A stretch of 64,000 bases of DNA from a virus. Its lineage: Duplodnaviria > Caudoviricetes. The stretch covers positions 44,623 to 108,622 of the IMG/VR virus record IMGVR_UViG_2934470325_000001; one strand, 5' to 3'. The notes below the pieces were generated by a model. The model was not told where the DNA came from and searched no databases. It saw nothing but the letters and a program-made list of their open reading frames with translations. Positions 910-45,001 of this stretch are shown piece by piece; position 1 is the first letter of the stretch; the number at the start of each line of letters is the position of its first letter. Both the position numbers and the translations under genes were made by a program.

Positions 910-1850
910 CAGGACATGCTGCCGTCGGAGACGCGGCCGGTGAACGTGAACGTCGCCGGCAGTTCCAGACGTCCCGCCGGCCCCTGCGGACCGGGGTCAC
1001 CCTTCGGCCCCTGCGGACCCGCCGGACCCTGAGGTCCCTGCGGGCCGGCAGGACCGGGCTGGCCAGCACCGCCGTACCGCTTCGCCATGCACATCTGGAG
1101 TTGCACGTAGCCCCACGCATCGAACTTGTCGCCGGAGGTGGCGGTGCTGCCGACCGACTTGCGCATCCGCAGCACCGCCGCCGACGTGCCCGACCCGTAG
1201 ACGCCATCCTCATCGCCGGCCTTGAAACCGAGATAGTTGAGGGCGACCTGGAGGGCCTGCACGTGCATGCCCTTGTCGCCGACCTGGCAGAACATCAGGA
1301 GTCCCCCTGTCGAAGTCGTCAACCCGATGTACGCCAGGTAGCGGCGGAACACCGGGGTCAGATCAGTGCCGGCCTTCGTGACATCCCGGAACACGCTGGC
1401 GTGCGTGTGGGACAGGTGCGAGGTGTCGCCGCTCGACCGACGCTTAAGCCGATCCCAGCGTTTGACCGTCACCCCGTCGGGCGAGTAGATGACCTCGCGG
1501 ATCCACAAGGTGTCCGGAGCATTCGCCTCACACTCACCGACCAGCCACACGCTGAACGTGCGCAAGTTGTGCGTCCGCCCGTTGACGGTGACGCTGAACC
1601 AGCCGACGTCCAGGGCCGACGCGTAGTCGCTCAGCCCGGCCTTGTCCCGCGACGACTCGACCACCGAGTAGTCGCTGGTCACCACCCGGTCCTCGCCGCA
1701 GTGGTAGCCGCCCCGGTGGGCGCTGTCGGCGACGATACCGACCTCGTTCGGTTCGAGGTCCGCCGAGCGGGCCACACCCGGATCCATGTCCAGATGCGTG
1801 AGGAGCAGGGAACGGACCTGCATCAGGTTGGATGGTGCGCGGGTCACCAC
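909..1850 (-). CDS. Endolysin: putative Zn-peptidase-like catalytic domain, peptidoglycan-binding domain, collagen-like tail
   Basis: ALD and HxxHxH motifs; PG_binding_1-like VQALQVALNYLGF..DGVYGSGTSAAV; about 10 Gly-X-Y triplets; position after the tail genes. Confidence 0.8.
   Translation of the reverse strand: MVTRAPSNLMQVRSLLLTHLDMDPGVARSADLEPNEVGIVADSAHRGGYHCGEDRVVTSDYSVVESSRDKAGLSDYASALDVGWFSVTVNGRTHNLRTFSVWLVGECEANAPDTLWIREVIYSPDGVTVKRWDRLKRRSSGDTSHLSHTHASVFRDVTKAGTDLTPVFRRYLAYIGLTTSTGGLLMFCQVGDKGMHVQALQVALNYLGFKAGDEDGVYGSGTSAAVLRMRKSVGSTATSGDKFDAWGYVQLQMCMAKRYGGAGQPGPAGPQGPQGPAGPQGPKGDPGPQGPAGRLELPATFTFTGRVSDGSMS
972..1064 (-). repeat. Collagen-like (Gly-X-Y)x10 repeat in the endolysin
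   Basis: GQPGPAGPQGPQGPAGPQGPKGDPGPQGPAG. Confidence 0.95.
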
Positions 1851-1872
1851 ATCACCTCCGTGGGGTTGCCGG

Positions 1873-3345
1873 TCATGCGGTCATGTCCCAGGTGATGGAG
1901 TCCAGCCACACCGACTGGCCTGTGCTGAGGCTGTTGCCGAGGGTGATCTCACCGTTCGTGGCGATCTGCAACTGGGTGCCGCCGCCCGTGTACCGGGCGA
2001 TCGTCGTCACCGCCGCGAGCGGCCTGTGCGCGGTCGTCGGGATGACTGCGACCACCGCCCCGGACGACACCGCCCCGGTCGCGGTCAGCGTGCCCCGCAG
2101 CCGGCCGTTGTCGCCGCCACGGTCCAGCCGCGATGCCGCCGCCTTCGCGCCCAGCGCCATGCCTGTGCCCGCCGTCAGGGCGACGAACGAGGTGGGAGCG
2201 GCAGTGCCACCCGCCGATCCGGTCGTCCACGTGCCCGGGGTCCCGCCAGCCGTGCACAGGTAGACGGCACCGGCAGAGTCGAGCACCACGTCACCAGTCG
2301 TCCACGTGCCCGACGTCGGTGCGCCCGTCGTGGCACGCTGGCCGCGAAAGTTGACGGCGGTCAGGCTGTTGTAGGAGCCGCCCGCGCGGACACCGAGCAG
2401 GCCGGCGAGGACGCGGGTGGCCACAATCCAGCCGGGCTGGGTGGAGTGGGCGGTGCCGTACGCACCCAGCAGCGGCTCACGGTTCGCCGCGACGCTGGGG
2501 TTGGTGCTGAGTTCGAAGAACCGGCCGGTCGACGGCCCGCCCTGGTTCTCATAGAACTCGAAGAACCGGCCGCCAATCCGGTTGTTGGTCGACGGGGCCC
2601 CGCGTACCTCACCGTTGCCGTTCGCCCAGAACGTCTTGACCGCCTGGCCGCCCGACGTAGTGGAGAACAACTGGATCGTGTCCGGGTTGTTGTCGCCCGA
2701 CGAGTACGCCATCTGCATCCGCAGCCAAGGGTTACCGGACTGGCCCTGCGTCGGATCCGGGGCCGTCGCCGTCTGCCCCACATACGCGCCGCCCACCTTC
2801 GGTGGGTTGAGCAGCAGCGCACCAGCCACCTGCGACGGCGACAGCAGCGTGAACTGCCCGCCCGACCAGCCGATCACCGTGCCATCCACGCGGGCACCCA
2901 ACGCGCCAGCCGACACATCGGAGAGGTTGGCCAGACCAGTCGAGTGCGGGTTGAGGGACGCCGCATGCGCCGCCAAAGCAGCAGCGTTGTCGGCCGCCTG
3001 CTGGCCGACCTGCTGCAACCGGGGGCCCAACACGCCGACCAGCCGCACCCGAGGGCCACCACCAGCGGACGCCCACAGGTCCGTCACCTCATCGGGTGCC
3101 TGAAACGGCGGGATCTGACCCAGGCCGCGCGTGCCGGTTCCGTCAGCAGACGTGACCGTGGTGACAGGGTTGCCGGCCTCATCGAGCAGGTCGGTGTACT
3201 GGACACCGCCCGTTTCCGCACTCCACCCGGTGACCTGCTGCCCGCCCACCACCACCGACTGCGCGCCGGTGACCGTGCCGACCGTCACCTCGTCGCCTAC
3301 GGTGATCGTGTAGTCGGCGGCCCCACCGCCAAACCAGTACCGCAC
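1873..3345 (-). CDS. Minor tail protein / tail fibre (candidate receptor-binding protein)
   Basis: Gly/Thr-rich 490 aa with a fibre-like motif (APTSGTWTTGDVV..YLCTAGGTPGTW); last tail gene. Confidence 0.8.
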   Translation of the reverse strand: MRYWFGGGAADYTITVGDEVTVGTVTGAQSVVVGGQQVTGWSAETGGVQYTDLLDEAGNPVTTVTSADGTGTRGLGQIPPFQAPDEVTDLWASAGGGPRVRLVGVLGPRLQQVGQQAADNAAALAAHAASLNPHSTGLANLSDVSAGALGARVDGTVIGWSGGQFTLLSPSQVAGALLLNPPKVGGAYVGQTATAPDPTQGQSGNPWLRMQMAYSSGDNNPDTIQLFSTTSGGQAVKTFWANGNGEVRGAPSTNNRIGGRFFEFYENQGGPSTGRFFELSTNPSVAANREPLLGAYGTAHSTQPGWIVATRVLAGLLGVRAGGSYNSLTAVNFRGQRATTGAPTSGTWTTGDVVLDSAGAVYLCTAGGTPGTWTTGSAGGTAAPTSFVALTAGTGMALGAKAAASRLDRGGDNGRLRGTLTATGAVSSGAVVAVIPTTAHRPLAAVTTIARYTGGGTQLQIATNGEITLGNSLSTGQSVWLDSITWDMTA

Positions 3346-4319: not shown

Positions 4320-5516
4320 CTAGAGCGGAACTTCGACGGTCGCGCCACGACGGGCGAGCTGCCGGAGAATGTCGCGCTGCACAGCGGCAGCAGGGTTGAG
4401 CATCTGCGCGGAGCCGACGCCGATGACCGGCCGGATCGTCTCCCCGTCATCAGGGCTGGCCTCGATCTCGACCGCACTGATCACGTCGGGCACGTCCGGT
4501 AGGCCCGGATACGCCTCCACCGCCACCAGGTCGCCGAGCTGGTAGTTGACGCCGTACCGCTGGCCGTCGATGTCGGCGGCCACCACGGCGAGGCGTTGCA
4601 CCTCAGCCGACCCGGCCAGCTCGTCATCGACGGCGGCCTCAAGCTCGGTCAAGTTGTCAGAGCCGGCCGCGTCTACGAACGTTTCAAGCCGCCACCAGTC
4701 GCCCGGGTCGCCGCGTTCGACGATGATCCGGTTGACTCCGGCGTCTTTGCCGCCGCCGATGCCGACCGTCGCCGACGGCGCTTCCGGCTCATGTTTGATC
4801 GACAGGAGGTTGCCCATGCTGCGGGAGAACCAGATCCCGCCGGTCTTGTCCTCGGGGCCGTACACCTGGAACTCGATGGTCTGACCGACCTGCTGGGTGC
4901 GGAACCCGACCCTGCCACCGGCCAAGTTGACGATGCCACGCAGGTCGTCGGTCACCGGGGCGAACCGCGTCGACCACGACACTGCCGCTCCGCCGAGCCC
5001 CGCCGGATCACCGAGAACCAGTTGCGGTATCCGCCTCGCAGGCAGCGCACCCGGCCCCGCGTTGAAGTTGACCAGGGCGCGCATCAGGTTCTCTGCTGTG
5101 TCCGTTGCGGTCCACTTGGCGACGTCCTGCGCGGTCGCTGCGAGCGCCGGATTGGGGTAGGACAGCCGTCCGGCGATCAGCGCCAGGTCGTCGGCGAACC
5201 TCACCGTCAGGTCGCCGTAGCCGTCGTCGCCGTGTGTGGCCGCCGACCAGTCCAGCGCCCCCGCGTACTCGATTGGTCCGGCCAGCAGGATGACCCCGTT
5301 GCGTTCGACGACCGCCCGAGCCTTGGGTGTGCGAACCGCCGTAACCACGTCCGGGTACGCGGGCACCGTGAACTCGCCGGAGCTGACCTCGTTGAACCGG
5401 AGCGTGACTGACAGGGACGTCCAGTCGTCTACCTGCTGCGAGATGACGTTGAGGTTGTGGTCGGTGATCCAGATGACGTACTCAGCAGGGGTAGGTGCGG
5501 GGCCGTGAACGCCCAC
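4320..5516 (-). CDS. Minor tail (hub) protein, ReqiPepy6 Gp37-like
   Basis: RLETFVDA and RYGVNYQLGDLVAV motifs; follows the Dit-like gene. Confidence 0.8.
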   Translation of the reverse strand: MGVHGPAPTPAEYVIWITDHNLNVISQQVDDWTSLSVTLRFNEVSSGEFTVPAYPDVVTAVRTPKARAVVERNGVILLAGPIEYAGALDWSAATHGDDGYGDLTVRFADDLALIAGRLSYPNPALAATAQDVAKWTATDTAENLMRALVNFNAGPGALPARRIPQLVLGDPAGLGGAAVSWSTRFAPVTDDLRGIVNLAGGRVGFRTQQVGQTIEFQVYGPEDKTGGIWFSRSMGNLLSIKHEPEAPSATVGIGGGKDAGVNRIIVERGDPGDWWRLETFVDAAGSDNLTELEAAVDDELAGSAEVQRLAVVAADIDGQRYGVNYQLGDLVAVEAYPGLPDVPDVISAVEIEASPDDGETIRPVIGVGSAQMLNPAAAVQRDILRQLARRGATVEVPL

Positions 5517-5526
5517 AAGCCACCCC

Positions 5527-6474
5527 CTACGCGGTGTTGTAGTGGGGGTAGAACTCGACGGTGATCGTGGTCCCCGGCCCCGAGCCGGCCACCGTGAACG
5601 TCAAGTCGTTGACGCCCGGCCTCAACCGCCACAACGTCGAACCCGGCCGTTGCAGCGCGCCGCCGAGCATCTCCCCGGACGGGCCGAGAACTCGCCCCGG
5701 GTCGGTGGTGATGGTGATCGTCTGCCCGGACCCCAGCGCGTAGTTGATGGTGAACTGCTGGCCAAGGGTGTTGTTGGTTGCCACCAGTTGCGTAGCTGGC
5801 CCCGTCAACGTCCAGGTAGGCCACGCGGCAACCTTGCCCGGGTTGGTCATCTCGGTTGCGCCGAGCACGTCGCCGGAGCTGATGTTGGGGAACGGGTTGA
5901 GGTAGTCGACGGTTTCCCCGTAGGCGCGGGACAGGGTGATGGGCTGCGAGTCCCGCCACAACCCATCAGGGCAGAACAGCGACAGGACCGGGGAGTCCTC
6001 CGTCTGCCCCTGCCCGGGTTCGCCTTCCCACCCGGACTGGTAGTAGGCGATCACCTCACGGGCGGTGCCGTCCGGGCGGACCAGGCGGAACAGTCCCGGC
6101 CCGTCCCACATGGTCAGGGCGAACGACTCCGCTAAATCCCGCCACCTCCGTAGGAATTCGAGGTGTGTGCGGCCTCTGATTCGCACCGGCCACGTCAGGT
6201 TGCGGGCCTGCCGGCGCACCCCCGTCACCTGGACCCCACCACGTGCGGCAGGACGCGACTGGATAGCGATGGGGGTGAGCCCGTAGCCGGTGACCGCGTT
6301 CAACGTGAACAGGTCCCGGCCGGGCGGGTTGAGAGGCCACTCCACCCCTGCCGGGTCGATCCACAACGGCACATACTCGCCCGGATCAAACCGGGGCAAC
6401 GGAACCGGTAGCGGCCTCGGCGGGGGCGGCTCAACGGGTGGTGTGGTGGGGGCAGCCCCAATGATCAGCGGCAC
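5527..6474 (-). CDS. Distal tail (Dit-like) protein
   Basis: Immediately after the tape measure gene; NPGKVAAWPTWTLTGP and LRPGVNDL motifs. Confidence 0.85.
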   Translation of the reverse strand: MPLIIGAAPTTPPVEPPPPRPLPVPLPRFDPGEYVPLWIDPAGVEWPLNPPGRDLFTLNAVTGYGLTPIAIQSRPAARGGVQVTGVRRQARNLTWPVRIRGRTHLEFLRRWRDLAESFALTMWDGPGLFRLVRPDGTAREVIAYYQSGWEGEPGQGQTEDSPVLSLFCPDGLWRDSQPITLSRAYGETVDYLNPFPNISSGDVLGATEMTNPGKVAAWPTWTLTGPATQLVATNNTLGQQFTINYALGSGQTITITTDPGRVLGPSGEMLGGALQRPGSTLWRLRPGVNDLTFTVAGSGPGTTITVEFYPHYNTA

Positions 6475-13939: not shown

Positions 13940-14596
13940 CTACAGGTACGAGTCGCCCCAGCTGACAGGCTCGGGGAACGCGTACAGCGGCAGCAATGCC
14001 TGACCGGGCGCGGTGCCGCCGTCCTGTTCCTCGTCGGCCGCCTGCTCCCGCAGCATCTTCGCCAACGCCCTCAGTTCGGCGGCAACGGCAGCGCCGTTCG
14101 TCGTCAAGTCTTGCGTGCTGATGACCTTGGATATCAACACCTCTGACCCGGCGATGATCTCCAACGCGGCGGCTGCACCCCGCTTGACGCTGCCGCCCTC
14201 TGCCGTGATCAGTGCGGCAAGCTGGGCGTCCTCGAAAAGCGGGGCTGCCTCGTCGAGGTCGGAGATTCGCAGTCGCACCATGCCAACAGGGGTGGCCGGG
14301 TCAACGGCGATGGGCGGGAGGCCAACCAAGTCGCGGGCGGCCACGAACTTGCCTTGCACCGCATCTTCGGCGGTGCCGGTCGCGGTGAGGCTGTACGTGT
14401 GGGTGCCGGCGGCTGCAACCTGGTAGACGGCCCGGTAGGTGCTGCCGTCAGCGGTGACCGTCATGGCAGCGGTCGTGCCGTCGGGGCGGGTCACGTCGCC
14501 CGCCACGGTCGCGCCCGTCACCGGGTCGCCGTCGACACCGCGCAGTGCCCATTCGGCGACGAACTGCTGCCCCTGCCAGTAGACGCGTGCGCTCAC
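13940..14596 (-). CDS. Head-to-tail connector with an extra N-terminal Ig-like domain
   Basis: C-terminal half (DPATPVGMVRLRISD..LFEDAQL) is connector-like; N-terminal ~90 aa are beta-rich. Confidence 0.75.
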   Translation of the reverse strand: MSARVYWQGQQFVAEWALRGVDGDPVTGATVAGDVTRPDGTTAAMTVTADGSTYRAVYQVAAAGTHTYSLTATGTAEDAVQGKFVAARDLVGLPPIAVDPATPVGMVRLRISDLDEAAPLFEDAQLAALITAEGGSVKRGAAAALEIIAGSEVLISKVISTQDLTTNGAAVAAELRALAKMLREQAADEEQDGGTAPGQALLPLYAFPEPVSWGDSYL

Positions 14597-15927
14597 AGCA
14601 GGGTCACCTCCGACCGTTGAGGCGTGGAGACTGTGCTGCCAGCGGGGATACGAACCTCACCCCGGGCGGGCGGTGGGAGCGCGACGTCTGCAACCGACCA
14701 TCCGGTGCTGGTAGCCCCGTCCACCGTGGCTGCTGTTGACCAGACTGCGGTCAGGGATCCGCCTGCGGGTGCGGTGACCGACCAGCCGGTGGTGATCACA
14801 CCCGACGTGAGGGCGGCAACATCCCACACGGTGGCGCTGCTACCAGTGGCCGTTGACCGCACCGACCAGGAGGTGCCCGCGTTGCCGCTGGCTGTGGCCG
14901 AGGTATCCCAGCCGGTGGAGACGCTGCCTGCCGCCGCAGCTAAAGCCGACCACGCGGTGCTGACGCTGCCGCCCGTCGGACTGGCCGTCGCCCAGCCTGT
15001 TGCCGTGCTGCCTGACACCTGCGCGGCCACATCCCACGAGGTGTTGACCGCGCCGCCGGCCGCAGCGTCAACCGCCCAGTCGGTGGCGACCGCACCCGAC
15101 GCGGTGGATGCCACAGACCAGCCGGCTGCTGTCGACCCGGACGCCGTTGACGTGACCGACCATGCCGTGGCCGCCGCGCCGGACAGCGGGGAAGCCACCG
15201 ACCACGTTGTACTTGCGCCACCCGTGACCGGAGCCGACACCGACCATGCGGTTCCAACCGTCCCCGACACCGGCGTGGTAGTCGCAGTCGGGGCAACCTC
15301 CACCAGCAGACCGATCATGGAGCTGCTGACATCGGAGGTGACAGTCTCCCCGCCGTAACTGCCCGTCGACCCGACCAGTACGTACCCGGCTGCCGCACGC
15401 ACGTTCGCGTTCGTCGTCGCCCGAGACGTGCTGTGGTCGACGACCTCCGTGTAGGAGCCGTCGAGGTTGATGTTGGTGGGGATGGTGCCGGACCCGACGC
15501 GGCTGTGCGCGTCCACCAGCAGCGCCGCCCCGGCCGTCACCCCTGTCAAGGTGGGCAGGGTGACCGTCGTGCCGGTCGCGTTGGCGGCGGCGGCCTGCGC
15601 GATGCTGTCCGCCCCGCGCACCACCAGCAGTTCCCAACCGCCCGTCACGCTGCCGGAGTTCGTGATTGTCGGCGCGGTGTCCCCGGATTGCAGAACCCGA
15701 TGCCAGGCGTACACCCGGGATGCGGACCCATCCGCGTACGGCCACGTCACCCCGGGCAGCAACGTCCACCCGGCAGGCGTCGACATGGTGAGGGATCCGC
15801 CGGACACGTGCCCGACGAGTAGGCCGATGTCGCCGGCCGCCCATCCGACAGGAAAGGTGGTGACAAAGCTGGTCGCGGTCGCCGAGCCAGGGTTGCCGGA
15901 GGCGACACCCACGTAGGAGACCGCCAC
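14593..15927 (-). CDS. Putative virion fibre with a 14-aa Trp-periodic repeat stalk
   Basis: N-terminal beta domain (TPAGWTLL) followed by 14 tandem 14-aa repeats. Confidence 0.75.
   Translation of the reverse strand: MAVSYVGVASGNPGSATATSFVTTFPVGWAAGDIGLLVGHVSGGSLTMSTPAGWTLLPGVTWPYADGSASRVYAWHRVLQSGDTAPTITNSGSVTGGWELLVVRGADSIAQAAAANATGTTVTLPTLTGVTAGAALLVDAHSRVGSGTIPTNINLDGSYTEVVDHSTSRATTNANVRAAAGYVLVGSTGSYGGETVTSDVSSSMIGLLVEVAPTATTTPVSGTVGTAWSVSAPVTGGASTTWSVASPLSGAAATAWSVTSTASGSTAAGWSVASTASGAVATDWAVDAAAGGAVNTSWDVAAQVSGSTATGWATASPTGGSVSTAWSALAAAAGSVSTGWDTSATASGNAGTSWSVRSTATGSSATVWDVAALTSGVITTGWSVTAPAGGSLTAVWSTAATVDGATSTGWSVADVALPPPARGEVRIPAGSTVSTPQRSEVTLL
14680..15267 (-). repeat. 14 x 42-bp degenerate coding repeat (consensus SGSVxTxWSVAAxA)
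   Basis: Trp every 14 residues, from SGTVGTAWSVSAPV to DGATSTGWSVADVA. Confidence 0.95.
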
Positions 15928-15943: not shown

Positions 15944-16870
15944 TCAGCGCATCAGGTCGACGAACGCAGCCCGCTCGCGGTCCCGCACGTACGTCCGCCC
16001 GTCGGGGTAGGTCAGGGTCGCGTCGAGGTGGCAGTTGCCCCGGTAAAACCACGCGACGTACGGCACATCACCCTGCGCCCGCAGGTACGCCATGTTGTCC
16101 CGCATCGCCTGCGCGCAGACCGCCCCGTCAGGGTCGTAAGCAGCGCCGGACTTGAGCGCCGGTTTCCGCTGAATACCCCACTCGGGAACCACTAGCGGCT
16201 TGCTGACCTGGCGGGCCACAGACAGGGCGAAGTCGTTCCGCTCGACCGGGCTGCGATACCGCTCGTATCCGGTGTCGTAGATGTCGAACCCGACGGCGTC
16301 CACCCCAGCGAGCGCTGCCACCTGCCCGAAGTCCTGCCACCATGCGTTGTTGCGGCGCGCGGCGTACTCGGTGAACACGGGCACCAACCACACCTCACGC
16401 CGTCGCGGATGGTCAGCGAGCGCTTCGATCAGCTCCTTCCATCCCTGCCGGTACTCGGCGGGGGTTGGGTCGCCAGATTCCTGCTGCTCAGGCTCGTGGT
16501 CAAGGGTCAGCAGGTCCACCACGCCGCGTCGTACCACCGGCCGCGTCGACAACCAGTCCCGGATCAGCGCCGGGGAGGTGGCGCGAGACCAGTCCTTGAA
16601 CGAGTAGTGCAGCACCGTGTCCGCTGGCACCTGGGCGAGCATCCCCGACGACCACGGCGCGACGCCCTTTCCCGGTGCACTGTAGAGCCGCATCAGTCGG
16701 GGTTGCGGGTAGCGGGCCGCCATGCGCTGAATGTCTGTCACAGTGCTGTCCGGCGGGCACCAGCCGAGCAGGGTCGGCCGGTCCTGCACGGTAACCGTCG
16801 TCGCCGTGACGGTCGTGTGGCCGGCGGCGTCACGTACCCGCCCGGTCAACACGACCGTGCGGGCAGCCAT
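15944..16870 (-). CDS. Glycoside hydrolase, clan GH-A (GH26-like), probably virion-associated
   Basis: Start at ATG 16870 (TGATG overlap). HEPE acid/base, GFDIY and VPEWG nucleophile motifs; no signal peptide. Confidence 0.8.
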   Translation of the reverse strand: MAARTVVLTGRVRDAAGHTTVTATTVTVQDRPTLLGWCPPDSTVTDIQRMAARYPQPRLMRLYSAPGKGVAPWSSGMLAQVPADTVLHYSFKDWSRATSPALIRDWLSTRPVVRRGVVDLLTLDHEPEQQESGDPTPAEYRQGWKELIEALADHPRRREVWLVPVFTEYAARRNNAWWQDFGQVAALAGVDAVGFDIYDTGYERYRSPVERNDFALSVARQVSKPLVVPEWGIQRKPALKSGAAYDPDGAVCAQAMRDNMAYLRAQGDVPYVAWFYRGNCHLDATLTYPDGRTYVRDRERAAFVDLMR

Positions 16871-17142
16871 CAGGCGACCGAGACTGTGAACCGGCCGGGG
16901 GCCGACGGGTCCGCGACGATCGTCACGCCCGGGTCGTTTGCGGTCAGCTCGTAGGTGAGCGGATCCCCGACCGTGACCGTGGTCGTAGCGGATGCGGTGA
17001 CACCGTTGGCGTCGGTGACACTGCCGGACAGGGTGATGGTGCGGGCGTCCGGGTCGAACGCGTCGATCCACACCTGCACGGCCTGTCCGGGCTGCACCGT
17101 GTCCAGGGAAGCAGAGATGGAGCGGATGATCGGGGCGGCCAT
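16870..17142 (-). CDS. Small Ig-like structural protein
   Basis: Start at ATG 17142; 90 aa with alternating beta-strand pattern. Confidence 0.75.
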   Translation of the reverse strand: MAAPIIRSISASLDTVQPGQAVQVWIDAFDPDARTITLSGSVTDANGVTASATTTVTVGDPLTYELTANDPGVTIVADPSAPGRFTVSVA

Positions 17143-19391: not shown

Positions 19392-19751
19392 TCAGATTTC
19401 CATCCACTCCACGGCCGCGCCGTCGGCGGCGGTGGTCAGGGCGATCCCGACGTTCGTGACGGCGGCAGTACCGGACGCGACAGTCCCGGCGGCACCGGAG
19501 TCGACGCGGGCGGCGGCGGTGATCGCGCCCGAGGCGGTGGACACGTGGACCTTGCCGCGCGGGAAGTAGGACACGCGGGCCCCGGACGCGGCGTCGAACG
19601 CCGCGACACCGACGACAGCAGCCGACGCGGCACCAGCCGGGCCGACGGTGCCGTTGCCGGCCACGGCGAGCACCTGCCCGCCGGTGATCGCCGTGGCGGC
19701 CGTGCCGGTGATCTGGTCGCCGTACAGGAACTTCGGCTCGTAGGCACCCAT
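19392..19751 (-). CDS. Capsid cement/decoration protein (DUF2190-like)
   Basis: Ala/Gly-rich, VVGVAAFDAASG..VGIALTTAADG. Confidence 0.85.
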   Translation of the reverse strand: MGAYEPKFLYGDQITGTAATAITGGQVLAVAGNGTVGPAGAASAAVVGVAAFDAASGARVSYFPRGKVHVSTASGAITAAARVDSGAAGTVASGTAAVTNVGIALTTAADGAAVEWMEI

Positions 19752-19753
19752 GG

Positions 19754-20308
19754 TCAGTTACCCCCGGTCGTGGCGGTCGGGCCGTCGAGGGCGGCCATCT
19801 GGCGCTCCCACTCGGCGTCCAGGTCGACGGTGGTGTCCGCACTGCCCGTGTAGCCGGACACGCCGGTCGGAACGGCGGTGCCGTCGGCGATCGAGTTGAG
19901 GACGTCGGCGATCACGTCGGGGGCCTTGTCGTACCGGGTCTCCCACGACTTCCGGTCAGCCGGCTTGATCTTCCCGGCCTTGACGGCGGCGTCGAGGATC
20001 GCGTTCTTCTTGTTCGCGGCCTCCCGGGACCGGATCTCGGCGAGTTCCGCCGACACGCGGGCCAGCTCGGCGGCGAACGGGTTGTCCGCCGGGGCGGCCG
20101 GCGTCTGCGGCGCGGCCGGGGCCGGGTTCGGCTGGGGGGTGGGCGACGGGACGGGGTTCGGCTCGGGGGCCGGCTCCTGCGTGGTCTCGTCGGGGTCGGG
20201 GTTCGGCTCATCGGACGGCAGACGCTCGTCGAGGGCCGCCAGGATGGCAGTCTCGTCGGCGGTGTCGTCCAGGCCGAGCCGGGAGCGGATCGCGCTCAGG
20301 TCGGACAC
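19754..20308 (-). CDS. Nested in-frame scaffold protein (internal start)
   Basis: AAGGGGG RBS just before the in-frame GTG at 20308 (VSDLSAIRSRLGL). Confidence 0.6.
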   Translation of the reverse strand: MSDLSAIRSRLGLDDTADETAILAALDERLPSDEPNPDPDETTQEPAPEPNPVPSPTPQPNPAPAAPQTPAAPADNPFAAELARVSAELAEIRSREAANKKNAILDAAVKAGKIKPADRKSWETRYDKAPDVIADVLNSIADGTAVPTGVSGYTGSADTTVDLDAEWERQMAALDGPTATTGGN

Positions 20309-21070
20309 AGGGTCCCCCTTCGGTTCGGGATTGGTTGCTTCCGGCTCGGCGGCCGGGAGTTCATCGGCGGTCGGCGTCTCGGTGACAGCAGCGACCGGGC
20401 GTGGCAGCCGGGGCGGGGGTGCGGCATCCCGACCGGCATAGTTGAAGATCGACAGATCCCAGCCGTTGCGGGCCGGCTCGGCGGGCTGCTTGTCGGTGTC
20501 CTGCTGCACCTCGTGCATCAGGCCGGCGGCGACCGCCTCAGCGGGGGAGTACCACGTTTCGGCGCGCATCGCGGCACGCCACTCGTCGACCTCACCCCCG
20601 GCGCGGGTGGCGTAGATGGAGGCGATGTTCGCCGACACGCGGTCGAGTTCGTCGACCATCTTGCCCATGTCGGCGGCGTTGCCGATGCACATCCCCCACG
20701 CCTCGTGGATCATCACCATGCCGTGGGGGGCGATGACCCGCTTGTCCCCGGCGAGGGCGATGAACGACGCCGACGACGCAGCCAGCGAATCCACGTACGT
20801 GGTGATGGACGCCTTGTGGTTCCGCAGCGCCTGGAAGATGGCGACGGCATCGAACACGTCTCCACCAGGGCTGCTGATGTGCACGTCGAGCCGGTCTGCG
20901 GTGATGGCGTTCACGTCGCGGATGAAGTCTTGGGCGCTGACCCCGAACCAGCCGATCTCGTCGTAGATCCACACTTCGGCGGCCCCCGTGGAGGCCAAGT
21001 TGTTGATCCGGTACCAGTCGCGGCGCGACCCATCAGCGCGAGCCAACGGCCGCGCGGTTCTCGGCTTCAC
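19754..21070 (-). CDS. ClpP-type head maturation protease fused to scaffold
   Basis: Start at GTG 21070 (RBS GGAGG). ISSPGGDVF, AASSAS, MIH and ETW motifs of S14/S49 proteases; Pro-rich linker and helical C-terminus. Confidence 0.92.
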   Translation of the reverse strand: MKPRTARPLARADGSRRDWYRINNLASTGAAEVWIYDEIGWFGVSAQDFIRDVNAITADRLDVHISSPGGDVFDAVAIFQALRNHKASITTYVDSLAASSASFIALAGDKRVIAPHGMVMIHEAWGMCIGNAADMGKMVDELDRVSANIASIYATRAGGEVDEWRAAMRAETWYSPAEAVAAGLMHEVQQDTDKQPAEPARNGWDLSIFNYAGRDAAPPPRLPRPVAAVTETPTADELPAAEPEATNPEPKGDPVSDLSAIRSRLGLDDTADETAILAALDERLPSDEPNPDPDETTQEPAPEPNPVPSPTPQPNPAPAAPQTPAAPADNPFAAELARVSAELAEIRSREAANKKNAILDAAVKAGKIKPADRKSWETRYDKAPDVIADVLNSIADGTAVPTGVSGYTGSADTTVDLDAEWERQMAALDGPTATTGGN

Positions 21071-21075
21071 AGCCG

Positions 21076-23142
21076 CTACCTCCAAATCGGGAACACGTAG
21101 CCACGGCACCGCAACCCGCCCTCGCAGGCGTGGTAGCCGGCGACCGGGTAGGCGGCCTGCGCTTCGACGACGGTGGTGAACTCGGTGCCGTCGATGTCGC
21201 GGCACGGCCGGCAGGTGTTGGAGTCGAGTTCTTCGACAGCCCTGAACCCGGCAGGGCGCGGATCGGCGGCGTCGAGGGCGGCGAGCCGGCCCGCGTTCTG
21301 CGCTGCCGTCAGCAGGGCACCCACGTTGTCGGCCACCCAACCCCGCCTGGCGGTGGAAAGCCCGTCGAGGTGGGCGCGTACCGCGTCGGCGACCTGCCTG
21401 GGGTCGCTGCTCGGGCCTGCGTGCAGCAGCCCGGCACGTCCCGCCCCGGTCGCATATCCGGCGGCCAGAATGCCGGCCGTGGCGTGCGCGGCGGCCTCCG
21501 CCTGTTCGCGGCCCGCGCCGTCAGGAACATTGAGCGTGACACCCTGCGCGGCGGCCTCCGCTACGACCTGGGCGACCGCCCCGGCGGCGAGCGTGGAAGC
21601 CCACCCGGCCAGGAACACGCCAAGCGCCGCGACCACCGCAGCGGACACGGCCAGGGTGCCGAGCGCCCCCAGGTCGGAGTCCTCGGCCGCCACCTCAGCC
21701 TGCCCCGCCAACTCGTCCACCATCGGCTGCGCCTGCTCCGGCCATTCGGCAAGCACATCGGCGCGCGCCTGCTCCCACGCCTCCTGAACAGCGGCCGGGT
21801 CAGGTTCCGGATCGGCAGCGTTGAACAGGGAAAGCTGACCGGTGCTCTGCCTGCGCCGAGCCCTGGACCGGGGACGCACCGCTGACGGCGGTGGTGTAGC
21901 CGACGGCGGACTGGCTGGGGTCGGCGGAGGAGCCTGCTGCGTGCGCTCCGGCAGCCGATACTCGCGGCGCACCCACGCTTCCAACGCCGGATCCGCCGAC
22001 AGGGCACCCGACGTCAACAGCAGTTGCAGCGACTCGGCAGTCACCTCACGCCGCGACCCGACGCCAGACACCACCACGCGGGGCACCGGCTCGGTCTCGC
22101 CCCAGTTCCAGTCCACGATTCGGGCGGCGATCTGCCGAGTAGCCGTATCCGCGATGGCTTCACCGATCGACTCCAAGGCCAGCGTCCAAGAGTCGATGAA
22201 CGCGGACCCGAGAGCACGCGACCCGGAATCCGTCGACCCGAGGTCCATGTGCTGCATCAGCACACTGCGGCTCATCTCCTGATTCAGGAACTTGATGAAC
22301 CCGAGCGTGTCCGGCACCGACCCCGACAGTCCGATGATCTTCGCGGTGAACCCCGGTGGTGTAACCAGCCCGGCTTGGTCGCCGGCCCGCGCCGCCGACA
22401 TCATCTGCTGCGCTTCCTGCATCTGCGCAAACGATGGGACGGTGCCGGGCAGCGCCTCAGCCACCGGGACACCCGCACCCCAACGCCGGTTCGAGATGGC
22501 GTTGACCCGCAACATCTCCCGCTTGATCAACCAAGCGGCGAAGGCAGGACGCAGCAGCGACGTGCCCTGCCACGACGCGCCCTCCCGGTCGTGGCAGTAC
22601 CAGACAAGCCGGCTGGCCGGGATCTGCGGCGACTGGTCTCCCCGCATCACCAACTGGTCGATGCCCAGCAGGGCACCGGTCTTCGGGTCGGCGTGGATCT
22701 CAGCGATCGTGCCCGGGATACGTTCCGCGAGCGCGGCCAGCCGGGCACGACCATCCACGATCTCAGCGGCAACCTCGAAGCCGTAGTGGCCCCACACGAG
22801 GCACAACAGCGCCGACCGCAGATGCTCCGACCACGACAAGCCTTGCCTGCGGAACGCCGACGGCGAATCGTCGCCAGCCACATTCAAGCCCATGCAGTCC
22901 GCGACGAACCCGGTCACCTCAGGGCGGCATCCGGTGCCGTCGAGCTGCCACTGCGCCCGCCGCAGTTGGAGCGTGTACCCGCCGTAAGCCCCGGAGAGTT
23001 GGGGATCACGGCGCATCTGCGCGTACATCTCTACCGATGCCGGATAGACCAGGTCGGGAACTGTCTCGTAGACGTCGTTGACCAGCGTCCCGTACTGGCG
23101 GTCATCGACCACGCCAAGCAGTCGGGTGGGGGGCGACGCCAC
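21076..23142 (-). CDS. Portal protein (DUF935-like) fused to a MuF-like minor head domain
   Basis: GTSLLRPAFAAWLIK portal motif; C-terminal DSNTCRPC..CEGGLRCRG. Confidence 0.85.
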   Translation of the reverse strand: MASPPTRLLGVVDDRQYGTLVNDVYETVPDLVYPASVEMYAQMRRDPQLSGAYGGYTLQLRRAQWQLDGTGCRPEVTGFVADCMGLNVAGDDSPSAFRRQGLSWSEHLRSALLCLVWGHYGFEVAAEIVDGRARLAALAERIPGTIAEIHADPKTGALLGIDQLVMRGDQSPQIPASRLVWYCHDREGASWQGTSLLRPAFAAWLIKREMLRVNAISNRRWGAGVPVAEALPGTVPSFAQMQEAQQMMSAARAGDQAGLVTPPGFTAKIIGLSGSVPDTLGFIKFLNQEMSRSVLMQHMDLGSTDSGSRALGSAFIDSWTLALESIGEAIADTATRQIAARIVDWNWGETEPVPRVVVSGVGSRREVTAESLQLLLTSGALSADPALEAWVRREYRLPERTQQAPPPTPASPPSATPPPSAVRPRSRARRRQSTGQLSLFNAADPEPDPAAVQEAWEQARADVLAEWPEQAQPMVDELAGQAEVAAEDSDLGALGTLAVSAAVVAALGVFLAGWASTLAAGAVAQVVAEAAAQGVTLNVPDGAGREQAEAAAHATAGILAAGYATGAGRAGLLHAGPSSDPRQVADAVRAHLDGLSTARRGWVADNVGALLTAAQNAGRLAALDAADPRPAGFRAVEELDSNTCRPCRDIDGTEFTTVVEAQAAYPVAGYHACEGGLRCRGYVFPIWR

Positions 23143-44414: not shown

Positions 44415-45001
44415 GCGGCGTCGGCCCGCAGCACGCGGAGCCCGCCACGGCGCTTGACGGCGCGGCGCTCGTCCTCGGACATGCCACCCCAAACGCCGTC
44501 GTCAACCCCACCGCTAAGCGCCCACTGCAAGCACTGGTCAACGACAGGGCAGCGGCGGCAGACGGCCTTGGCCTGCTCGATCTGAGTGAGAGCCGGGCCG
44601 GACGTGCCGACGGCAAAGAACAACTCCGGGTCCTCGTCGCGGCAGATGCCACGGCTGTGGAAGTCGTCTTCGGCGGCGGGCCGGCGGATGCTCACGACGA
44701 CGCGGGGCTGTCCGGTCGGGTTGGCGGCAGGGGCCGTCGGGGCGGGCCGCACCGTCTCCGTGTTGCCGAGCGTGCCGCTGCCGCCCGGAGGGAGCCCCAG
44801 CATGTCCAGCACCTCAGCCCATGCGTGTGCGGCGGCGTGCTCGGCGTTGGGGTCGCCGTCGCGTGCCCCGAACTTGTCGGCGGCGATACCGGAGAGGACG
44901 TTGCGGGCGGCTTCCTGCTTGCGCTTCTGGTCGGCGGCGTCGGTGCCGGTGCCGCTGAGGCGGGTGGTGGCGAGCCCGCCGTCGATGCCGAGCGCGGCCA
45001 T
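44411..45001 (-). CDS. whiB: WhiB-family (WhiB1-like) Fe-S regulator with N-terminal extension
   Basis: CRDEDPELFF..AKAVCRRCPVVDQC..GVWGGMSEDERR. Confidence 0.93.
   Translation of the reverse strand: MAALGIDGGLATTRLSGTGTDAADQKRKQEAARNVLSGIAADKFGARDGDPNAEHAAAHAWAEVLDMLGLPPGGSGTLGNTETVRPAPTAPAANPTGQPRVVVSIRRPAAEDDFHSRGICRDEDPELFFAVGTSGPALTQIEQAKAVCRRCPVVDQCLQWALSGGVDDGVWGGMSEDERRAVKRRGGLRVLRADAA

Follow-up and report, generated by a model that had tools for sequence, protein, structure and literature searches.

The endolysin PlyC is made up of PlyCA and PlyCB, the products of two genes, and the pilins of chaperone-usher pili have an incomplete immunoglobulin (Ig) fold, a terminal donor that consists of a single strand, signal peptides, and accompanying chaperone and usher genes. 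Ig-like domains are, in addition, reportedly displayed on the structural proteins of phages, as Fraser and colleagues are said to have described in 2006. Here we examine a pair of adjoining genes, one for a small Ig-like protein and the other for a glycoside hydrolase (GH), in a 64,000-nucleotide stretch of DNA (the window) that belongs to a provirus record of 108,622 bases (IMG/VR entry IMGVR_UViG_2934470325_000001, positions 44,623 to 108,622) whose nearest protein relatives are those of Micromonospora. The hydrolase begins with a copy of a β-hairpin that lies in the middle of the small protein. The nearest known system is that of Klebsiella phage KP32, in which a docking peptide of 29 residues on the second receptor-binding protein binds a branching domain of the first (PMC13352976). 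A further point of comparison is the CTP1L endolysin, in which the full-length enzyme is accompanied by its own wall-binding domain, the product of a second start (PMC4777826).

The pair in the window would resemble the KP32 system in that approximately 29 residues at the N-terminus of an enzyme constitute a transferable docking element to which different enzymatic domains can be attached. In KP32, however, the partner is a T4gp10-like branching domain, which forms part of a large spike anchored to the tail, and the peptide does not copy any part of its partner, whereas here the partner would be a stand-alone Ig-like protein of 90 residues, the tag copies the hairpin of that partner, and attachment to the virion is only a possibility; the small protein has no T4gp10-like branching-domain match in Pfam or PHROG. 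With the heteromeric endolysins the pair shares a small and a catalytic subunit that would assemble after separate translation, and several of the loci considered below lie in lysis cassettes. The contact in CTP1L rests on sequence common to both chains, whereas here the shared piece is only a hairpin and not a whole domain, and the small subunit has its own upstream gene. The enzyme families found behind the hairpin (GH-A, Beta_helix and Phosphoesterase) are, moreover, not peptidoglycan hydrolases, unlike a PlyC-like catalytic subunit, which is joined by a ring of small subunits that bind the wall. The Ig-like domains displayed by phages (T5 pb10, for example) are likewise accessory domains of bacterial Ig, PKD or cadherin-like type that are thought to bind surfaces weakly, but they are appended to capsid or tail proteins, whereas the domain described here is a protein by itself, with a tagged enzyme as its counterpart. 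With chaperone-usher pili the pair has in common that a β element of one chain may complete or extend the Ig-like sheet of another; here, in contrast, the element is an internal hairpin of two strands (residues 33–60 of 90) that is followed by further predicted strands, and none of the features that define such pili is seen. (No chaperone or usher genes were noticed among the neighbours that were scanned, the whole window not having been scanned for them.) We found no description of a module composed of a small protein and a tagged enzyme in the literature searched.

An earlier note on this DNA had reported that the middle of the 90-residue protein closely matches the first ~30 residues of the hydrolase, and our analyses bear this out. 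In particular, the two elements (hairpin 1 in the small protein and hairpin 2 in the hydrolase; Table 1) align without gaps and are identical at 16 of 28 residues, and their Smith-Waterman score of 71 was reached by none of 2000 shuffles of either protein (mean 31, standard deviation 5). When the 28-mer alone was shuffled, 0 of 20000 trials gave at least 16 identities; BLASTP with composition adjustment retained the first 15 residues only (9/15 identical, E 0.003). A profile built from 11 small-protein homologues matched the N-terminus of the hydrolase with an i-E of 6.3e-5 among 5256 stop-to-stop open reading frames (ORFs), and no further ORF was matched by the small-protein profile in the whole 108,622-base provirus beyond the two genes. 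By eye, a comparable hairpin forms the N-terminus of ~23 of 29 aligned hydrolase homologues. The interval that the note had assigned to the feature, 16790–17050, takes in both hairpins, apart from the final 9 bases of hairpin 2. Across the hairpin stretch the DNA is identical at 50 of 84 positions, and at 13 of 28 third codon positions; this is no recent duplication. The likeness between the small protein and the hydrolase is real, and it is old.

The two hairpins also follow one another between lineages. Using a segment of 24 residues anchored on the turn, we compared hairpins from 14 loci, including 7 divergent ones. Cognate pairs averaged 12.3 identities as against 9.5 for non-cognate pairs, and the observed sum was reached in 0 of 20000 permutations; for the 7 divergent loci, an exact permutation test gave 2/5040. 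Cognate pairs shared 9–15 identities and were thus closer than the same hairpin compared across lineages, with 6–14 for hairpin 1 against hairpin 1 and 5–10 for hairpin 2 against hairpin 2 between lineages. The lineage-specific matches are concentrated (by eye) in the first strand and the turn, and hairpin 1 is, again by eye, the most variable stretch of the consensus of 46 family members, the turn excepted. Where residues were identical, the same codon was used in 72 of 151 cases, with 70.2 expected from codon usage. Synonymous sites are thus at chance, and this, like the low DNA identity of the stretch in the window, excludes recent gene conversion or duplication as the source of the likeness.

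Small genes homologous to that of the window are found in the IMG/VR locus L052 (GC content 0.47) and in 9 distinct metagenome loci of unrelated phages (GC content 0.40–0.65), 8 of which could be evaluated. In 6 of these 8, an ORF led by a hairpin begins within 4 nucleotides of the stop codon of the small gene, and its opening hairpin resembles that of its own small protein. Pfam searches with five hairpin-led ORFs, one of which was read from L052 as the IMG/VR copy of L060, revealed Beta_helix in four (L052/L060, L055, L057 and L059; E 9e-10 to 1e-15) and Phosphoesterase in one (L058; E 7e-28). An N-terminal hairpin of 24–28 residues therefore heads three unrelated folds, always directly after a homologous small gene, and it tracks the hairpin of its own partner, in agreement with the suggestion of the earlier note that the hairpin is a modular tag on varied cargo. 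The small proteins of L057 and L058 are 67% identical and the cargo is different, so that exchange takes place immediately behind the tag. With respect to the small gene, the frame of the cargo is −1 in the window and L055, +1 in L052, and 0 with one stop codon in L057 and L059. Programmed frameshifting or readthrough as a way of joining the two genes was considered and rejected, there being no uniform recoding signal and no slippery site evident at the junction in the window; readthrough may occur in the frame-0 loci (L057 and L059).

The junction between the two genes, at which the window has a stop/start overlap of a single base, is equally tight (0–4 nucleotides) in all split loci examined, and elsewhere the two parts are joined. 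With a profile of the hydrolase, 39 of 275 Micromonospora genomes were matched, and the 30 loci that were fetched comprise 6 with the split pair, 12 with a single fused ORF, and 12 with the barrel only, within larger ORFs. The fused ORF (~367 amino acids) runs from the small protein's own start through the full small domain, a 4-residue linker and a second hairpin into a hydrolase that is a distant member of the same family (~29% identical); the representative P0045 (367 amino acids) has this build. Within each of the 12 distinct fused proteins, no more than 2–6 of 24 residues are common to both hairpins, which fits with a match being needed only in trans, that is, between separate chains. The fusion shows the two genes of the window to be parts of one functional unit, and the doubled hairpin to be an old, built-in feature. 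Natural deletion forms also occur. In one (P0011; L005, positions 1498–2427, minus strand), from a second prophage of M. rubida, a single strand links the first ~35 residues of the small protein to the hydrolase; half a hairpin has been lost along with the C-terminal half of the small part, and no separate small gene is present. The other (L023, positions 1255–2340, plus strand) is a fused form that lacks the first hairpin and has the second hairpin and the enzyme intact.

These findings suggest, with a probability that we put at roughly one half, that the two genes represent a conserved module in its split state, consisting of an Ig-like subunit and an enzyme whose first 24–28 residues copy the central hairpin of that subunit, and that their products form a two-part enzyme. 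In this enzyme the catalytic chain would use its N-terminal hairpin as a docking tag and bind the Ig-like chain by way of the very element that the tag copies. The small protein and the enzyme probably associate, to judge from the fused forms, the stop/start overlap, and the co-variation without synonymous identity. The overlap that is seen at the junction would cause both genes to be translated together. The N-terminal hairpin of the enzyme would then dock on the small protein, pairing with its hairpin or replacing it (a homotypic sheet or a swap), and a hetero-oligomer would result. The Ig-like part may, going by its family, bind or anchor the complex to a glycan surface or to the particle, and the enzyme, which here would be a retaining clan GH-A glycosidase and in other phages a beta-helix enzyme or a phosphoesterase, would cut a polymer of the cell envelope. 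(Note that the match, the overlap as a signal of coupling, the fusion, the varied cargo and the co-variation are observed, whereas the physical contact, how it is arranged, and what the Ig-like part and the enzymes do are what we infer.) Were recognition to run through a copied element, the tag would have to follow the sequence of its partner, so that each lineage would have its own matching pair. Docking is also favoured by the fact that the split pair stays together in settings as different as the head-tail regions of prophages, the vicinity of holins, and host DNA in which it has no phage genes around it.

Several observations weigh against docking of this kind. In 2 of the 8 evaluable metagenome loci (L061 and L062) the small gene has no tagged neighbour, and the AlphaFold2 (AF2) model of the hydrolase monomer already places the hairpin (predicted local distance difference test score, pLDDT, 74–91), which may just pack on the enzyme's own barrel. 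The 12 fused forms belong to one clade and thus represent one evolutionary event. No preference for the cognate hairpin is seen inside the Micromonospora clade (ranks 2–10 of 14); the specificity of the tag is visible only between distant lineages, and the independent lineages are few (7) and were chosen by the analyst. Finally, old episodic gene conversion combined with purifying selection would also yield cognate similarity with saturated synonymous sites.

Another possibility, which we hold only tentatively, is that the small protein homo-oligomerises through its central hairpin and that any enzyme bearing a copy of this hairpin slots in as a pseudo-subunit, such that the hairpin would amount to an address code based on self-mimicry. 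The hairpin is most variable in the family yet matched within each locus, which would point to a private, evolvable docking code for each lineage; were this so, cargo enzymes would be exchangeable by recombination just after the tag. The doubled hairpin could instead be a historical relic of an enzyme with an N-terminal Ig-like domain that underwent a partial internal duplication and was later split, leaving hairpin 2 as a structural piece (a cover for the barrel, for example), in which case hairpin 2 would not have to mediate any recognition between the two products. The colinearity of the fused and split forms, the prediction of the hairpin with fair confidence in the hydrolase monomer, the intact enzyme that is kept by both deletion variants (P0011 and L023), and the lack of cognate specificity within the Micromonospora clade all fit with such a history. 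We nevertheless consider it doubtful, because it leaves unexplained both the occurrence of the tag on three unrelated folds that have no common barrel, and the fact that hairpins of the same locus are closer to each other than are orthologous hairpins of different lineages, with synonymous sites at chance. It is unlikely that the two hairpins bind one site on a common third partner, be it a virion protein or a wall polymer, with the two chains competing for it or sitting adjacent. The co-variation of the hairpins would fit a shared target as well as mutual binding, and the module of the window, like those of L048 and L049, is surrounded by head-tail genes and adjoins a PHROG 'tail protein' match; but no third gene is constant across loci, the pair persists alone among host genes, and the fused forms place both hairpins in one chain. 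The least credible model is that of the earlier note, in which the small protein polymerises by pilin-like donor-strand exchange and the enzyme caps the resulting filament on the virion, for although the tag does copy an element of the small protein, as a capping subunit would need, and the small protein has a monomer model that is neither compact nor confident (predicted template modelling score, pTM, 0.46) and has no clear match among solved folds, polymerisation, capping of a filament and donor-strand exchange have no evidence behind them, the domain is homologous to self-contained, complete Ig repeats in tandem, the shared piece is an internal hairpin of two strands and not a terminal extension, and neither the positions in lysis cassettes nor the cis-fused host forms, in which the same parts work with no virion nearby, need a filament.

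Table 1. Features of the small-protein/hydrolase locus (window coordinates)
Feature	Position	Strand	Basis or comment
Small Ig-like protein gene, 90 amino acids	16870..17142 (including stop codon)	-	Translation; homologues of 89-96 amino acids
Shine-Dalgarno-like AGGAA	17148..17152	-	5 nucleotides 5' of the small-gene ATG; read from sequence
TGATG stop/start overlap	16868..16872	-	Hydrolase ATG and small-gene TGA share one base
Hairpin 1, small-protein residues 33-60	16963..17046	-	Predicted strands 35-43 and 49-57; D-x-x-G turn
Hairpin 2, hydrolase residues 3-30	16781..16864	-	Copy of hairpin 1; AF2 strands 4-13 and 19-28
Clan GH-A glycoside hydrolase gene (predicted), 308 amino acids	15944..16870 (including stop codon)	-	Pfam, AF2, Foldseek
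Glu126, H-E-P-E motif, likely acid/base	16493..16495	-	Invariant in 29/29 aligned sequences; putative role
Glu230, E-W-G motif, likely nucleophile	16181..16183	-	Invariant in 29/29 aligned sequences; putative role
Upstream neighbour, 178 amino acids	17163..17699	-	phrog_13135 (function unknown), E 6.8e-27
Downstream neighbour, 444 amino acids, repeat-rich	14593..15927	-	phrog_6079 'tail protein', E 5.4e-10

The small protein has 10 close homologues of 89–96 amino acids, and the same initiator methionine is present in all of its homologues; the AGGAA element 5 nucleotides before the ATG favours this start, which gives 90 residues, over the upstream GTG of the ORF list. A profile search of 1.84 billion representatives returned 590 relatives with E ≤ 1e-3. 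Among the best 150 of these 590, 73 are stand-alone proteins of 69–123 residues with the same N-terminal start, and most of the others are very large proteins (800–4900 amino acids, with E values down to 1e-29 for the family profile) that contain 5–31 tandem copies of the domain; two of these large proteins carry Big_9 or HYR Pfam domains. This homology to tandem Ig repeats suggests that the small protein is a stand-alone member of the bacterial Ig-like repeats (Big_9/He_PIG/PKD-like); its atlas neighbours, Big_9/He_PIG with a score of 0.87, are a lead only. The small protein itself matches no Pfam or PHROG family above threshold (Big_9 gave 12.9 bits, below the cut-off of 23.6), and 46 family members showed only scattered weak matches to Big_6, Big_13, TIG and PKD.

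The AF2 model of the small-protein monomer has six strands (pLDDT 77.8, pTM 0.46, with four of five models at pLDDT 57–69), and in it the shared stretch forms the central hairpin and is followed by strands at residues 73–77 and 85–89. Foldseek returned no match to this model at E ≤ 1e-3, and the best VIA match (Z 4.1), to Ig-like domains of GH2 enzymes, covers residues 1–60 only. A search by sequence revealed no solved relative, the best match of the family profile being a designed Ig (3.5e-4), and P0045 having none. The small proteins all begin M-A-A-P and are, by eye, without a hydrophobic leader. Scans of IMG/VR with A8, A9, P0075, P0072 and P0088 yielded nothing or one partial match, the family profile had no match in 400 other Actinomycetota genomes sampled, and a longer-protein search from P0001 found two weak tandem-Ig proteins only and missed the fused forms. 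In P0054 (358 amino acids) the small domain is C-terminal, after ~270 residues of unassigned domain, and an internal methionine sits at the usual start of the small protein; this is either a fusion in reverse order or a merged gene call.

The hydrolase matches the Pfam family Glyco_hydro_cc (PF11790) over residues 126–281, scoring 26.3 bits where the cut-off is 21 (E 6.6e-6). Its AF2 model has a pLDDT of 93.5, with values of 74, 91 and 80 for the blocks that span hairpin 2, and Foldseek ranks the GH26 lichenase 2v3g first (E 1.9e-9, TM score 0.58–0.65), followed by GH53, GH128 and GH5 enzymes. As modelled, the protein is a predicted (β/α)8 enzyme of clan GH-A, an assignment at the level of the clan and not of one CAZy family. 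The putative catalytic roles of E126 and E230 are presumed from the pattern of clan GH-A, in which two catalytic glutamates follow strands 4 and 7. The same hydrolase core also occurs behind other N-termini (P0014, P0019, P0021 and P0023), which are either a domain of ~220 residues that matches phrog_26064 (E 1e-43) or a hydrophobic leader with a Pro/Thr-rich linker, so that the barrel is joined to at least three kinds of N-terminus. (The ~220-residue domain of P0014 and P0019 was considered as a homologue of the 444-residue protein encoded downstream of the hydrolase and rejected, since it has no similarity to that protein and matches phrog_26064 instead.)

The position of the module varies among loci. 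In the window and in L001, L047, L048 and L049 its place is between the head genes and the tail genes, next to the 444-residue protein or a homologue; in L050 and L051 it directly precedes a holin (phrog_9752), in L052 it is followed by an M15 peptidase and a holin, and in L003 it comes after a weak GH25 match. In L055 the adjoining gene looks, by eye, like a dCMP deaminase, and in L002 and L004 the module is alone among host genes. Host genes that surround the isolated split pair include those for a methyltransferase, DUF3099 and PfkB. Across the loci examined, the module has no third gene as a constant neighbour. Given this variation, loading of the enzyme onto the virion is neither shown nor excluded, and a role at lysis is equally possible. 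The L050 provirus contains two copies of the distant hydrolase type (positions 158–1048 and about 5270–6112, both on the plus strand), of which one has tail-fibre-like genes close by, while the other carries the tag and sits behind the small gene, just before the holin. All eight fused loci with 9-kilobase flanks are in one conserved host neighbourhood, where the neighbours, as scanned in one locus, belong to GDE-like, GH88, DinB, 2'-5' RNA ligase and MEDS/STAS families. The 367-residue fused product (L039–L046) has, by eye, no signal peptide, and the presence of a leaderless Ig-glycosidase beside GH88, a glycogen-debranching-like enzyme and MEDS/STAS regulators raises the question of a host role.

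In the window, the structural genes on the minus strand run in the order portal-size ORF, ClpP-like ORF, cement protein, major capsid protein, and proteins of 165 and 178 amino acids, followed by the 90-residue protein, the 308-residue hydrolase, the repeat-rich 444-residue protein and a 218-residue protein, with an ORF of 1409 amino acids (tape-measure size) farther on. The long ClpP-like ORF (19754–21340, minus strand) has, by eye, features of a ClpP-like protease and a Pro/Ala-rich tail, and its start is uncertain; between it and the capsid gene lies the gene for the Phage_cement_2 protein (19392–19751, minus strand; E 8.8e-6). The 444-residue protein contains many near-regular repeats that each end in a W-S-V-like triplet, and its homologues follow the hydrolase in L001, L005, L048 and L049, being 377–381 amino acids long in the last three. 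The N-terminal part of the 218-residue protein (13940–14596, minus strand) is an Ig-like stretch with weak Filamin, YtkA and MBG matches (E 0.02–0.2) and a similar strand-D-x-x-G-strand pattern, yet it is not matched by the small-protein profile; the C-terminal domain corresponds to phrog_18316 (E 2.8e-20).

The small Ig-like proteins constitute a large undescribed family that lies outside the families of Pfam and PHROG, and the natural fused, split and deletion forms of the module provide ready-made comparisons for experiments. If docking of the enzyme through its N-terminal hairpin is true, then the small protein would recruit partners that bear a copy of one of its own hairpins, which would explain how, in uncultivated phages, envelope-degrading enzymes of unrelated folds come to be exchanged on a single small adaptor. 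The hairpin would in that case be a short, portable and lineage-specific tag for the attachment of enzymes, comparable in its use to the docking peptide of the Klebsiella phage but with a partner of 90 residues.

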